A stretch of DNA of 64,000 nt from the UHGV virus genome UHGV-0294963; one strand, 5' to 3'. Each line of letters begins with the position of its first letter. The first letter of the stretch is position 1. The notes below the pieces were generated by a model. The model saw nothing but the letters and a program-made list of their open reading frames with translations. It searched no databases and was not told where the DNA came from. Below are positions 2,960 to 62,900 of the stretch, piece after piece. The DNA comes from a virus. Both the position numbers and the translations under genes were made by a program.

Positions 2960-3000
2960 CATACAAAGTATAACACAAAAAGACACACAGTTACGAAGTT
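2960..3000 (-). promoter_or_regulatory. promoter: AACTTCG - 21 nt - TATACT (with TGn) about 30 nt upstream of the AGGAGG RBS of the 2026..2934 gene
   Basis: Minus-strand reading is AACTTCGTAACTGTGTGTCTTTTTGTGTTATACT. The same architecture recurs at 11 or more other intergenic sites. Confidence 0.5.
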
Positions 3001-3069
3001 ATAAGACACATAGCACGCTACGATTTGCGTGTGGTTTTATAAACCGTACATACAATTACATACAATTAC

Positions 3070-3108
3070 ATGAACACACGCAGCAAACAGAAACGCTGTA
3101 GGTTCTCC
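3070..3108 (-). terminator. rho-independent terminator (12 bp stem, 4 nt loop, then a U-rich tract on the minus strand)
   Basis: aaacgctgtagg-ttct-cctacagcgttt. The transcript continues CUGUUUGCUG. It lies downstream of the tRNA-Met. Confidence 0.45.
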
Positions 3109-3140
3109 TACAGCGTTTGGCAAGATAAACAAACAAGAAG

Positions 3141-3213
3141 GGAGCCTCCTGGGATTCGAACCCAGAACCTCTGGTTATGAGCCAGAAGCTCTAACCAATT
3201 AAGCTAGAGGCCC
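3141..3213 (-). tRNA. tRNA-Met (anticodon CAT; elongator type, or lysidine-modified Ile2)
   Basis: Hand-folded cloverleaf: acceptor GGGCCTC/GAGGCTC, anticodon arm TCTGG-CTCATAA-CCAGA, T-arm CTGGG-TTCGAAT-CCCAG. 73 nt; CCA not encoded. Confidence 0.85.
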
Positions 3214-59355: not shown

Positions 59356-59556
59356 AATAATCTTTCCTTTCTGATTTTGAAATTTTGGTACTTGGTGTTT
59401 GGTGTTTGGTTTTCTTTGCTTTACATTTCTTTGCCAATGGTTAAGCAAGACTCAATGTAATCCACTACACGGTCCGCGGTAACGTGCAATGTAACATTGT
59501 ATGCTTATTATAACACACATCTTCGTGTAAAACGAAGTTGTGTGGTTATCGAAATC

Positions 59557-60570
59557 TTACAAGCCGATGCGTCGTGCTGACTTAGGAAGACCAACAAATT
59601 CAGTTGTCTCCAGATATCTAACCATACTCGCTGCATTGAACATCTGACGCATCGCAATGCTATTCGTGATATCCTCGACGCTGTCATCGAGCACTTCTTC
59701 TTCTTCAGATGAACGAGTGGGGTCAATCTTTCTGAGTTTTTCAGTAGAGAAACCAGCGTCTTCGATAAGCCTGCATACTTCTTCTTTAGCGTCTGCACCT
59801 AGCCAACAGAAATGGTCAGCAGCGCCGGTAGTTCTTTCACCTACATTCATAGCGGCAAGCTTATTGTGTCTGTGAACGAGAATTGTTCCATAGATTGCAC
59901 CCTTCAACCAGGTTGTAGAGTCAACCGATGTGAAATCAATATACTGAAGAATATTCAGTGCGGTCATACCAAATCCATGTGTCTTTACATCCGGATTAGA
60001 TGATTTTTTGATACGACGAAATGCTTCTTTGCAGAACACAAGCCTGCGGTCAGTAGTTGTTTCCGTATGAGGTGATATACCGATGTAACGGAGAGGATTA
60101 CCGTTAGCATCACGATACTCTAGCATATTCTCCAACCATTTGAAATCTTCACCCTCATGAAAGACAGGAATAAACCTATCCCAAAGACTCTTGTCAAGAC
60201 GCTCACGCATATGCAAGAAGTTCTCCCAAGAAATTCTTGGAGCATCAAGATAAACCTGTCTATCCTGTACGACGTTAGACTTACCAGGAATGTAGTCAAC
60301 CTGAACCATTACATCGAAATATCTACCGTACTCGTTAAGATAAGCGATGTAGTCGTCAAGGTCAATTTCTTTTCCCTTGGTGTAAGCCGAGAACGCACCT
60401 GAGTCAACGAACAGTTTCATACCTGGATGCTCATCTTTATAACTCATCCAACGCTTAATACGCGAACGGTCATTCAACTGCGAAAACAGTCGATTATAGC
60501 CAGCTTTAACCAGATACTCATCAACTGCTTGCGGTGCGCTACCAGCAAAATATAACTGCGTTTTTAGCAA
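59557..60570 (-). CDS. dpdA: DpdA-like DNA-guanine transglycosylase (tRNA-guanine transglycosylase superfamily)
   Basis: LFVDSGAFSAY matches the TGT/DpdA DSGGF catalytic motif. 337 aa. Confidence 0.55.
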   Translation of the reverse strand: MLKTQLYFAGSAPQAVDEYLVKAGYNRLFSQLNDRSRIKRWMSYKDEHPGMKLFVDSGAFSAYTKGKEIDLDDYIAYLNEYGRYFDVMVQVDYIPGKSNVVQDRQVYLDAPRISWENFLHMRERLDKSLWDRFIPVFHEGEDFKWLENMLEYRDANGNPLRYIGISPHTETTTDRRLVFCKEAFRRIKKSSNPDVKTHGFGMTALNILQYIDFTSVDSTTWLKGAIYGTILVHRHNKLAAMNVGERTTGAADHFCWLGADAKEEVCRLIEDAGFSTEKLRKIDPTRSSEEEEVLDDSVEDITNSIAMRQMFNAASMVRYLETTEFVGLPKSARRIGL

Positions 60571-62174
60571 GTGACAACCCTTCTTTCTAATGATTTAATA
60601 TATTCCTCAGCCTTTTCTTTCATCTTATCTAGGAATCGAGAAGAAGGACGAAGATACTTTTTCTTTGCGGTAAGCTTGTCTTTTGTAAGGTAGCTTACCC
60701 TATCCCAATGCTTATGGACTACATTGTATAAATAGGAGAACAGTCGATTGTAGCGTTTGATAGCTTTCTCCTGATACTTCCATTCTGCATCGTCATTAAG
60801 AGCTGCCCGTCGTTGTTCAGGTTTCATCTTAAGCCATCGGTCAGACATATACTTACCTTCGGCTACTCCGATGTACCGAACCTCACCTGTAATGACATTA
60901 ACTGAAAATCGACAGTCATCATATGTAAATGACGCAATCGATTTATCTGTATCTCGAAAACCCATCGTAATGAGGTCCTTCACATTCGACTGAACATAAC
61001 GGACAGCGTCTATAAATGTTAGCGAGTTAGGATTAAGCTTCTTCCACCTGTCGACGTAATAAGGTACATGCTGAGTCATGTGCTTCTCGTAACGATTTCC
61101 TTCTCGCTTGATTTTCCTCCAATCACCGTTAACCATATGCAAAGCAGCTTGATGACCACTCATGGAGCCAACGATAACCTGATGAACCAGGTCATAGAAA
61201 TCTTCTCGCTTTTCATGAGAAAGAATTCGAGGAGCGAACACGGGTTCGTGTGCTTTCAGAAGAGGATTCCAACTGAATCTGCATAGTTGAGGCTCGATAG
61301 ATTTAAGCTGCTCAACAACAATCTGCTCCCACTTTTCAACGCGAGCATTCATACCCTTAAATGCCGGTATTCTACAATTCTCGGTGAACATCTGAACTTG
61401 ATTGCTAACAGAATGAAAGAAATAATTGTATAAGCACGAGTTTACGTCTTCCCGATAATCATTCTCGATTTCTCTTGAACAATCGAATTCTGTATGCTCC
61501 CACTTAACGTTCTTACCAAGACGTTCTTTTTTCTTGTCTTTGGCTTCAACTACCCAACCTTTCTTATTAACTATCAATTTAGGCTTGATTACCGTTTCAA
61601 TGAAACGCTGATGGTCATCACCCAAACATTCTAGAACAGCTGACCAGCTATACTTCGCTACATCTGCAAGCGTACAGACTCCCTGTGCGTAGCGTACTCT
61701 CGCATCCCAGGTTGATAAGAACATAACTGAGGTGTTTATACAGTTTCCGTCCTCGTCATACCAACGATTACGTCTATTCTTGTATGTAACACCTGCATAC
61801 TCAGCTTTTGCAGGAATATATCTATGAAGCCAGCTCTCAATCCCGTGAAGACAATTAAGAGCGAACTCATATGGAATTATACCTTTCTTGACTAACTTCT
61901 GCTGAACATTAGAACTTAAATCGAATGCTGCAAGTTTACCGTCCTGGTATAAGGCAGCTTGAACACCTTCTGGGGGATTGTTGATTATATCTGTCACTCG
62001 AGATTCTATATCAAAATTATCCGGTAAGCTCACTACCTTCATATTCTTATAATATAGAATCCTATTCCCTTTGTAGAGACGACTCAAGAACCAACCCTCA
62101 GGAAGACGTTTCTCGAAAGAAGTTCTAGGTAGAACTTTCTGGCACATTATCGATAGACCCTCTTTCTTGACCAC
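60564..62174 (-). CDS. hypothetical protein (536 aa) translationally coupled to dpdA
   Basis: Long ORF. GTG at 62174 or the internal ATG. Promoter motifs at 62208..62240 and 62290..62326. Confidence 0.45.
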   Translation of the reverse strand: MVKKEGLSIMCQKVLPRTSFEKRLPEGWFLSRLYKGNRILYYKNMKVVSLPDNFDIESRVTDIINNPPEGVQAALYQDGKLAAFDLSSNVQQKLVKKGIIPYEFALNCLHGIESWLHRYIPAKAEYAGVTYKNRRNRWYDEDGNCINTSVMFLSTWDARVRYAQGVCTLADVAKYSWSAVLECLGDDHQRFIETVIKPKLIVNKKGWVVEAKDKKKERLGKNVKWEHTEFDCSREIENDYREDVNSCLYNYFFHSVSNQVQMFTENCRIPAFKGMNARVEKWEQIVVEQLKSIEPQLCRFSWNPLLKAHEPVFAPRILSHEKREDFYDLVHQVIVGSMSGHQAALHMVNGDWRKIKREGNRYEKHMTQHVPYYVDRWKKLNPNSLTFIDAVRYVQSNVKDLITMGFRDTDKSIASFTYDDCRFSVNVITGEVRYIGVAEGKYMSDRWLKMKPEQRRAALNDDAEWKYQEKAIKRYNRLFSYLYNVVHKHWDRVSYLTKDKLTAKKKYLRPSSRFLDKMKEKAEEYIKSLERRVVTC

Positions 62175-62900
62175 GTGCTAACGACACGTTTTTGAACTCA
62201 CATATAAAGTATAACACACGACATCAAGGTACACGAAGTTATTTACACATTCTACCTTGCACACCTACATAATTATATATTACATTGTATCATAATTATA
62301 ACACACATCCTATTTTACCATCGAAGTTAAAACCAATTAACCAAGGCTGCGGTGACTATACTATATAATATAACAACAACCGTTTTCTTCCTCTAGATTT
62401 GATTATTGCTTTAATGACCTAAAGTGCCACCAAATAGCAAAATATCAAGGCGCTTCGCGCCTAGCTTTAAAGATTCTATTTTCAGTTTTTAATTTTCGGT
62501 TGTATCTACTTCTTTTGACTTAAATTTCTTATTTGTCTTAATTGCTGTCTTTGAATTTTGTTTGGTTTTGGTTTGTCTGCGGTTTTGTCGCAGTCAAGGT
62601 TGCGTGCTGAAAGCAGAAACCTTTGTAGCGATGAGTATGGTTTACCAGGCTGTAAGCGGTGTGCAATCCGACTTGTCGGTGTGATATATTAGATGGAGCG
62701 GTGCGAACATATAATATATTGTGAGGTATGTGAAATACATAGAATTAAAAATAGTAAACAAATCGATTAAAGAAAAAGTGTTGATACTGTAAAGATTAAA
62801 CAAATTTTAACGAAAATATAAATATTCGACGTTTTGTTGCTTGTATGTTATAATAAGAGTGTAGTAAAATAACAAACAGCCTAATGCAAGGAGGTTACTA
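62175..62900. promoter_or_regulatory. divergent, AT-rich intergenic control region (two tandem minus-strand promoters, a GC hairpin, T-rich direct repeats, a plus-strand extended -10)
   Basis: No ORF. cgaagtt motifs at 62234 and 62320. Hairpin aggcgcttcgcgcct at about 62441. TGTTATAAT at about 62858 upstream of the AGGAGG RBS at 62886. Confidence 0.4.

Follow-up and report, generated by a model that had tools for sequence, protein, structure and literature searches.

We describe here a promoter class that recurs through a 64,000-nucleotide stretch of the virus genome UHGV-0294963. The window, by which we mean this whole stretch at its full length, corresponds, in reverse complement, to ~69.5-133.5 kb of a human gut metagenome scaffold 150,573 bp long (ZELL14-1_SAMEA2467055 scaffold_36, in ENA ERZ28657755). 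Its promoters join a host-type -10 hexamer, TATAAT or TATACT, to an upstream heptamer, AACTTCG (the box), across a spacer of 20-21 nt. The feature is real, strongly conserved and specific to one clade of phages. Overall, we believe with moderate confidence that the pre-late (early plus middle) promoters of these phages would be served by the host's RNA polymerase holoenzyme with sigma-A, the primary sigma factor, and that a clade-specific factor on the box would replace the usual -35 contact.

A preliminary description of this DNA had proposed a recurring bipartite element on the minus strand, together with a motif scan by which it could be checked, and a scan of this kind bears the proposal out. 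The pattern ACTTCG-N{18,24}-TATAMT (M being A or C) matches the window 13 times, always on the minus strand, against a mean of 0.12 and a maximum of 1 in dinucleotide-preserving shuffles, which set the chance level. The fixed spacing held up equally well: box and hexamer are 21 nt apart at 10 of these sites and 20 nt apart at 3, and in a histogram of sense-strand distances from TTCG to TATAMT, 21 (10 sites) and 20 (4 sites) stand out sharply, no background value exceeding 2. The first letter of the box deviates only once among the 13 (TACTTCG, 56829-56835), and relaxing its first three letters adds two variant copies, giving 15 sites in the window, all of them between genes or at gene ends and oriented towards the next gene. 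The thirteen sites listed in the preliminary description all exist, although its approximate positions were 2-21 nt off and the one at 7745 is a predicted start site, not a hexamer. A scan of the window for consensus -35/-10 promoters shows no excess (46, against 42.4 in shuffles). K-mer over-representation with a high-order background proved too insensitive to be useful, and a literature search for AACTTCG returned primer noise only.

The box spans -40 to -34 when the spacer is 21 nt and -39 to -33 when it is 20 nt, with its centre near -36/-37, in agreement with the earlier placement of the heptamer at about -40 and away from the usual -35. It therefore sits 3.5-4.5 bp upstream of where the centre of a -35 hexamer would be, and has only TT in common with TTGACA. 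The -10 is TATAAT at 12 of the 15 sites and TATACT at the other 3. On the sense strand of the window, the box accompanies 8 of 15 occurrences of TGnTATAMT and 7 of 9 occurrences of TRTGnTATAMT (R being a purine). Predicted leaders, counted from start site to start codon, run to 23-62 nt at nine sites and 141-234 nt at four, and one promoter feeds a tRNA cluster; the distance of 25-35 nt from the -10 to an AGGAGG ribosome-binding site that had been described is thus found at most sites, but not before the tRNAs or at the four long leaders.

Relatives of the phage extend this picture well beyond the window. A search with the clamp loader led to 65 related viral loci, and the motif occupies orthologous positions in those whose clamp loaders are 75-98% identical but is absent altogether from those at 45% or below. 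Flanks and spacers of orthologous promoters are ~50% identical, and the box/-10 pattern stands at the orthologous position in every relative; identity figures for the box and the -10 themselves are partly circular, the sites having been picked by pattern, and the real evidence is that no orthologous position lacks the pattern. Box and -10 are under purifying selection. Because the spacer switches between 20 and 21 nt among orthologs, both lengths evidently work. The clade consensus, drawn from 240 unique sites, reads A-A-C-T-T-C-G(t), 20 or 21 nt without information, T-R-T-G-n-TATAAT, 4-5 A/T-rich nucleotides, and T-(A/G)-(C/T) centred exactly 7 nt after the -10, followed by an A/C-rich leader such as ATACAATAAAACA. 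The box is an asymmetric 7-bp element, (A)(A/T)CTTCG, with an invariant TTCG core and an orientation that always follows transcription. The -10 is near-invariant at five of its six positions, with A or less often C at the fifth, under a search pattern (TA[TC]A[ACT]T) that itself fixes four positions and restricts two. In the class with 20-nt spacers the extended -10 has, at -15/-14, T at 101 of 106 sites and G at 90 of 106, preceded by T and then R.

There is no -35 hexamer in this consensus: information is close to zero across the spacer, nothing like TTGACA stands 16-18 bp from the -10, and AACTTCG, 20-21 bp away, is the sole conserved upstream block in the 240 sites. Conservation ends with the box on its upstream side, so we find no UP-like element. 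When sites were anchored on the -10 and leader alone, blind to the box, TTCG fell at exactly 20 or 21 nt in 126 of 152, and the remaining sites were mostly wrong-strand noise. A scan of IMG/VR with AACTTCG-N18/19-TGTTATAAT gave several hits per contig in one contig group only, the largest members of which are 110-166 kb; the other hits are singletons, as chance predicts. The view that the heptamer is something other than a -35 hexamer is therefore upheld, and both the relatives and the database scans mark it as the property of one clade. Some of these relatives, including the genome with a 98% identical clamp loader, pack 8-16 units of promoter plus small gene into 5-11 kb.

The downstream half of the element is of a familiar kind. 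In bacterial promoters the spacer is 15-19 bp, a TRTG extended -10 is common in Firmicutes, and transcription starts within a pyrimidine-purine-pyrimidine (YRY) element centred 7 bp downstream of the -10 (PMC12641261). Since TRTG and a YRY motif at the 7-bp distance are both present in the sequence here, the whole segment between -17 and +2 has the make-up of a primary-sigma promoter of Firmicutes; the earlier reading of the -10 as sigma-A-like is borne out by the TRTGn before TATAAT and the YRY centred 7 nt downstream, and there is a strong case that regions 2 and 3 of sigma-A would read TRTGnTATAAT. A phage RNA polymerase was considered and rejected, because the -10 region is the full sigma-A signature; no DFDGD-type motif occurs in any frame, and the 1177-aa and 961-aa proteins of the window have no solved-structure hit.

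In the mechanism we propose, transcription would start at the purine of the conserved YRY, 7 nt downstream of the -10, and the RNA would begin with an A/C-rich leader of about 25-60 nt. The fixed spacing and orientation, the single asymmetric 7-bp site and the restriction to one clade suggest that the box is bound by a monomeric, orientation-specific DNA-binding module, most likely a phage protein that is either synthesised early or enters with the DNA. Bound there, this module would touch RNA polymerase and substitute for the contact between sigma region 4 and the -35, and the extended -10 would allow basal transcription before the factor accumulates. Phage transcription would in this way become independent of -35 recognition, much as in T4 sigma appropriation or with a class II activator. 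The box class would also drive both phage sigma genes, whose products would then serve other, late promoters.

The reader of the box might instead belong to the host, being either a host transcription factor or sigma-A itself using AACTTCG or TTCGnn as an odd -35 with an 18-19 bp spacer. Such a reader would conveniently be present at infection, given that every promoter has the box, even where the genes behind it are presumed to come first, and with a spacer of 18 or 19 bp TTCG does line up with the TT of TTGACA. However, TTCGnn lacks the critical G of TTG and leaves the conserved AAC unexplained, and with the spacing of 21 nt, the commoner one in the window, the spacer would measure 19 bp, which is the limit of the known range (PMC12641261). 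Among the 120 matches listed from bacterial genomes, moreover, the pattern occurs as single, taxonomically scattered copies without TRTG context, leader signature or ribosome-binding sites. Four apparent sites in one bacterial locus (L262) proved to be a coding repeat and no promoters.

Canonical promoters in the clade and around it also speak against a host reader. Streptococcus phage Dp-1 and distant relatives with ~40% identical clamp loaders use TTGACA-like hexamers (TTGACA/TTGACT, TTTACA, TTGCAT) in -35-N17-TATAAT promoters. Within ~155 kb of clade sequence there is one strong canonical sigma-A promoter, TTGACT-N17-TGnTATAAT, kept in four clade members outside the window (L133 5864-6028, plus strand; L108 3622-3790, minus; L112 7731-7896, plus; and L153 1586-1751, minus). 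The phage thus can and does use a normal -35 in its host, and the box promoters are therefore a deliberate alternative. Taken together, these observations make a host reader very doubtful. The product of the canonical promoter is a conserved ~125-nt RNA without a reading frame. This RNA has a hairpin (AGUAG..CUACU) at its 5' end, a conserved stretch free of pairing, CCCCCAACCUUGACGACUGUUCCAC, and an intrinsic terminator; one relative has another stem sequence in the terminator, but the stem pairs there too. The RNA has no Rfam match, and the equivalent position on scaffold_36 would be near 147.7 kb. A search of two 8-kb Ruminococcus fragments found no canonical promoters, in a sample too small to be informative.

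The preliminary description had offered a phage factor or one of two phage sigma factors as possible readers of the box. Two phage sigma genes are indeed present, one encoding a 203-aa protein (41736-42347, minus strand, promoter at 47725) and the other a 212-aa protein (1440-2078, minus strand, promoter at 2967; 198 aa in the gene call of the contig), both with a Sigma70_r2 domain. One of these, more probably the 203-aa protein, might replace sigma-A altogether in the manner of SPO1 gp28, using AACTTCG as -35 and TATAAT as -10. With its seven asymmetric base pairs and its constant orientation and spacing, the box has the look of a site for sigma region 4, many extracytoplasmic function (ECF)-type -35 elements start with AAC as the box does, and the 203-aa sigma keeps 86-92% identity throughout the clade, just as the box stays invariant. 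At the same time, the gap of 20-21 bp exceeds the 15-19 bp range of bacterial spacers (PMC12641261), and the combination of TRTGnTATAAT and a start after 7 nt is characteristic of sigma-A. In a class read by a phage sigma, the gene of that sigma would be expressed from another, earlier class of promoter; here both sigma genes lie inside box-headed operons with no other promoter-like site upstream, the presumed earliest genes, in the small-gene arrays, are under the same promoter, and the clade's only canonical promoter drives the small RNA.

The sigma proteins themselves point the same way. Region 2 of the 212-aa sigma is SigA-like, but the protein lacks the residues of regions 2.4/3.0 that read TATAAT and TG, namely the tryptophan pair and the region 3.0 His/Glu. 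Several positions of its region-4 recognition helix vary among phages with an identical box, even at 98% clamp-loader identity. In comparisons with L132, L086, L144 and L071 the protein is 40-71% identical among box-sharing phages, at 71% in the genome with the 98% identical clamp loader and 40-55% in the others; this sigma evolves much faster than the rest of the genome. Among cultured phages it is most similar to sigma proteins of SPO1-like phages, at 30-32% identity. The 203-aa sigma, whose nearest solved relatives are SigF, WhiG, FliA and SigK and whose profile search reached the same clade only, is less well excluded, but in a divergent ortholog that shares the box (contig _139995, 45-47% identical) the positions aligned to base-contacting residues differ. 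On these grounds (residues, varying region-4 helix and gene position) neither phage sigma makes a good candidate, and the -10 would most naturally be read by sigma-A. We therefore regard a phage sigma as a fairly improbable reader of the box, and of the two earlier suggestions the sigma factor is the less likely and is weakened accordingly; the 203-aa protein is itself a candidate late or middle sigma.

Nor need the box act positively. TRTGnTATAAT alone can free a promoter from a -35, and these could be plain sigma-A extended -10 promoters on which the box serves as operator for a phage repressor or shut-off factor, or as some other DNA-level signal, by which the whole pre-late class is switched off later in infection. 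One box per promoter would permit coordinated shut-off of the whole class, and the inverted box within the spacer of the promoter of the SSB-like gene, described below, looks operator-like. Repressor sites usually tolerate variable positions, however, whereas here the spacing stays within 1 bp and the orientation is fixed over 240 sites, which argues for a defined contact with polymerase. A protein bound at -40 to -34 would also sit upstream of all that an extended -10 promoter requires and so block it poorly, and no DNA-binding protein was detected among the small proteins scanned. An operator is thus an unlikely explanation of the box.

Several considerations weigh against a box-bound factor acting with sigma-A. 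Promoter function is itself read from sequence. The search for a candidate box-binding protein gave no helix-turn-helix, MotA or AsiA hit among ~50 window proteins and 32 small proteins from the flanks and from early regions of relatives, a scan of ~80 proteins that could miss remote homologues and that covered ~55% of the phage genome. Since the box is found on the entire class, the promoters of the presumed earliest genes included, the factor would need basal activity of the extended -10, injection with the DNA, or host coding. The 203-aa sigma is as conserved as the box, the bacterial-genome evidence comes from the 120 matches listed and is not exhaustive, and the host is a guess from the endolysin: its nearest named relatives, 47-48% identical, come from Ruminococcus and Oscillospiraceae, a weak hint at these taxa.

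A bolder version of the box-bound factor holds that this is a second, independently evolved system of the sigma-appropriation type, in which a phage protein, possibly injected, reads AACTTCG near -37 at every pre-late promoter. This version is possible, although we would not ourselves lean towards it. If it were true, all transcription of the phage would be immune to a phage-imposed block of -35 recognition. A tie to the phage's 7-deazaguanine modification, altering the major-groove face of G in TTGACA, is speculation.

Regardless of the identity of the reader, the genes served by the box promoters form a coherent set, comprising replication, nucleotide and 7-deazaguanine synthesis, tRNAs, anti-defence-type genes and both phage sigma genes; in relatives, box promoters also precede small-gene arrays typical of host-takeover regions. 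The tail, baseplate and lysis block (8861-30224) has no copy at all. The single temporal class proposed earlier is consistent with this distribution, one promoter type serving the pre-late genes and none occurring in the structural block. A different element, (GG)TCATTGA-N10-TATAATA, is found at 25906-25927 and 15332-15353 (minus strand), directly upstream of the tape-measure-like and endolysin genes. Its TGA-N10-TATAATA core is conserved in four relatives, three of which also keep the upstream ATTGA/AATGA, and the element may be a late promoter, perhaps one read by a phage sigma. A second element before the structural and lysis operons, where the box is missing, fits a pre-late class and a separate late class.

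The 15 promoters can be assigned to genes across the window; unless otherwise stated, the box is AACTTCG, the spacer is 21 nt and the strand is minus. Ahead of the operon that encodes a 527-aa protein and a DpdA-like gene lies a tandem pair. The first of these promoters (62288-62328) has its box at 62322-62328, TGTGT before TATAAT at 62295-62300 and a predicted start at ~62288; the second (62201-62240) has a 20-nt spacer, TGTGT before TATACT at 62208-62213, a predicted start at ~62201 and a 54-nt leader to the 527-aa gene (60564-62147). Divergent from the pair, on the plus strand, the promoter at 62822-62861 combines ATATTCG (62822-62828), a 20-nt spacer and TATGT before TATAAT (62849-62854), and faces an SNF2-family helicase gene that begins at ~62901 and runs past the window end.

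The replication genes follow. The SSB-like gene (58489-59355) is preceded by a 145-nt leader and a promoter at 59500-59539, with a 20-nt spacer and TGTGT before TATAAT at 59507-59512. Within the spacer of this promoter, whose orthologs include L006 7209 and L012 861, stands a second, inverted box, CGAAGAT, and in some relatives the same promoter carries AACTTCG-N7-CGAAGTT, a perfect palindrome. The inverted box and the long leader may mean extra regulation of this gene; the idea that the gene behind the palindromic promoter is a regulator was dropped, its product being SSB-like. The clamp-loader promoter (56795-56835) has the variant box TACTTCG, TATAAT at 56802-56807 and a 25-nt leader, and serves the genes at 55769-56770 and 54999-55769; a terminator-like hairpin lies just upstream, at 56918-56950. 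An apparent insertion in the clamp loader of relatives was an artefact, the search having joined the paralogous next gene. The promoter at 52939-52979 (TATAAT at 52946-52951) has a structured 145-nt leader and heads an operon of 139-aa and 183-aa genes, a UvrD-like helicase, a DnaB-like helicase and a primase. That at 47718-47758 (TATAAT at 47725-47730) serves an operon encoding 289-aa, 961-aa, 510-aa, 203-aa (the sigma), 353-aa, 126-aa and 1177-aa proteins. The large neighbours of the 203-aa sigma gene (961, 510, 353, 126 and 1177 aa, within 36751-47702, minus strand) have no Pfam, PHROG or solved-structure match, save weak Listeria-Bacteroides repeat hits in the 510-aa protein.

Further along, a 263-aa gene (35853-36644) lies behind a 62-nt leader and the promoter at 36706-36746, with TATGT before TATACT at 36713-36718. 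The queuosine-type operon, comprising a Vut_1/YhhQ-like transporter, QueA-like, QueF, QueC, QueD, QueE and FolE genes, has its promoter at 35644-35684 (TATAAT at 35651-35656) and a 234-nt leader (35411-35644, minus strand); this leader has no Rfam match, the preQ1 riboswitch classes included, and a known riboswitch here was accordingly dropped. At 30224-30263, a promoter with a 20-nt spacer, TATGT before TATAAT at 30231-30236 and a 26-nt leader heads an operon for a phosphoribosyltransferase, a DUF4406 protein, NrdD and NrdG. Beyond the structural block, the promoter at 8821-8861 (TATAAT at 8828-8833) is separated by a 39-nt leader from a 246-aa gene (8042-8782), and that at 7745-7785 (TATAAT at 7752-7757) feeds tRNA-Leu (7587-7671), tRNA-Pro (6903-6979) and then further genes. 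A 298-aa gene (3527-4423) with a 26-nt leader is served by a promoter at 4449-4489, which has TTTGT before TATAAT at 4456-4461 and is itself directly preceded by a tRNA-Leu (4492-4576). The promoter at 2960-3000, with TGTGT before TATACT at 2967-2972 and a 26-nt leader, drives a PemK/MazF-like 302-aa gene (2026-2934) and then the 212-aa sigma gene (1440-2078). Last in the series, the NADAR gene (111-548) has a 23-nt leader and a further variant promoter (571-610), with ATCTTCG at 604-610, a 20-nt spacer and TATGT before TATAAT at 578-583.

Intergenic hairpins recur with GGTTTTGCT(A/T), often followed by GTGTGGTTGT / ACAACCACAC arms, at ~52910, 47838, 35609, 26045 and 15446, all on the minus strand. 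One hairpin is a clear terminator after nrdG; others lie within long leaders downstream of box promoters and may therefore be regulated terminators.

The long genes of the window are all on the minus strand, with a GC content of ~43%, AGGAGG-like ribosome-binding sites and five tRNA genes. Neither a nucleotide search with 20 kb of the window nor a protein search with the 1177-aa protein matched a cultured phage. The replication genes comprise two clamp-loader subunits, a sliding clamp, SSB-like and RecU-like proteins, UvrD-like and DnaB-like helicases and a primase; nucleotide metabolism is represented by NrdD and NrdG, the structural and lysis block (~9-26 kb) by a tape-measure-like protein, a baseplate wedge and the endolysin, and anti-defence-type functions by Tad2-like, NADAR and PemK-like proteins. 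The 7-deazaguanine DNA-modification set (DpdA-like, FolE, QueE, QueD, QueC, QueF, QueA-like and YhhQ-like transporter) occupies 59557-60570 and 30356-35410, both on the minus strand; the DpdA-like transglycosylase is phrog_887 and the transporter is YhhQ/Vut_1-like. The QueA-like protein (33251-34486; PF02547, E = 8e-105) seems unusual among phages and hints at a modification beyond preQ1. ARAGORN calls a 98-nt tRNA-Tyr(gta) at 4665-4762 (minus strand) that the Rfam tRNA model does not report at its gathering score; this unusually long call may reflect an intron or be false. Outside the window, L230 1600-2500 (Ruminococcus sp. YE282, NZ_FMUV01000001 184001-192000) holds tRNA-like pieces split by a repeated GCGGCTAA...CATCCTTCT motif and a canonical TTGACA-N17-TGaTATAAT promoter, the sequence of which recurs in viral contigs L084 and L156; downstream of it, ATGTAAGTTAAACAAAC resembles the leaders of one phage subclade.

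What emerges is an uncultured clade of 110-166 kb phages, presumably of gut and rumen Firmicutes, with a host-type -10 and an upstream box of its own at essentially all pre-late promoters. The motif is usable now, both for a precise operon map of an otherwise unannotatable genome and as a sequence signature for members of the clade. If a factor does bind the box, it would represent a new way to redirect Gram-positive RNA polymerase, and potentially a compact, orthogonal promoter-factor pair for engineering.

Each of the known systems that invites comparison shares only part of this architecture. Firmicute extended -10 promoters have the same TRTGnTATAAT, A/T-rich discriminator and YRY centred 7 nt downstream (PMC12641261), but ordinary ones have no conserved element at -40 to -34, whereas the 7-bp box is as conserved as the -10 itself. 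Promoters of ECF sigma factors have a GGAACTT-type -35 (the RpoE-type core being AACTT), followed after 16-17 bp by a -10 of the CGT or TCTGA type. They have the letters AACTT in common with the box, but the -10 here is TATAAT and no conservation is seen 16-17 nt beyond the box. An ECF-like reading that places the -10 16-17 nt after AAC was rejected likewise, since that position is not conserved and TATAAT comes 24-25 nt after AAC. Dp-1 and the distant relatives resemble this phage in their replication module (the clamp loader is 39% identical), queuosine-type genes and a phage sigma gene, and differ in their canonical N17 promoters without an AACTTCG box. SPO1, a large lytic Firmicute phage, likewise has two phage sigma factors and dense arrays of early promoters and small genes; its transcription cascade passes from sigma-A early promoters to gp28 and on to gp33/gp34. 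The early promoters of SPO1 are canonical -35/-10 promoters, however, and those of its phage sigmas have quite different -10 elements, whereas the early-type promoters of this clade lack a -35 hexamer.

The only well-understood case we know of in which a phage box and activator replace the -35 contact is that of MotA/AsiA in T4, a phage of a Gram-negative host. The middle promoters of T4 likewise combine a near-perfect host-type -10, often with TGn, and a short asymmetric phage box at a fixed distance, without a -35 hexamer; they drive genes of replication and nucleotide metabolism, and the CTT core of the T4 box (with an ACTT variant) is also found in AACTTCG. Promoters of the TGn/-10 type have been described as a class, and the MotA box, (a/t)(a/t)(a/t)TGCTTtA, is set off from the -10 by 12 +/- 1 bp, with its centre at -30 (PMC2988021), as against 20-21 bp and a centre near -36/-37 here. 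In T4, middle promoters become active through early proteins of the phage by which region 4 of sigma is remodelled. T4 also has separate canonical early promoters, whereas the box class is apparently used from the start in this phage, the host here is presumably Gram-positive, and no homologue of MotA or AsiA was found among the ~80 proteins scanned. Thus, by position, by sequence and by the MotA/AsiA search, the box promoters stand outside the T4 family, while in their mode of action they appear comparable to T4 middle promoters.

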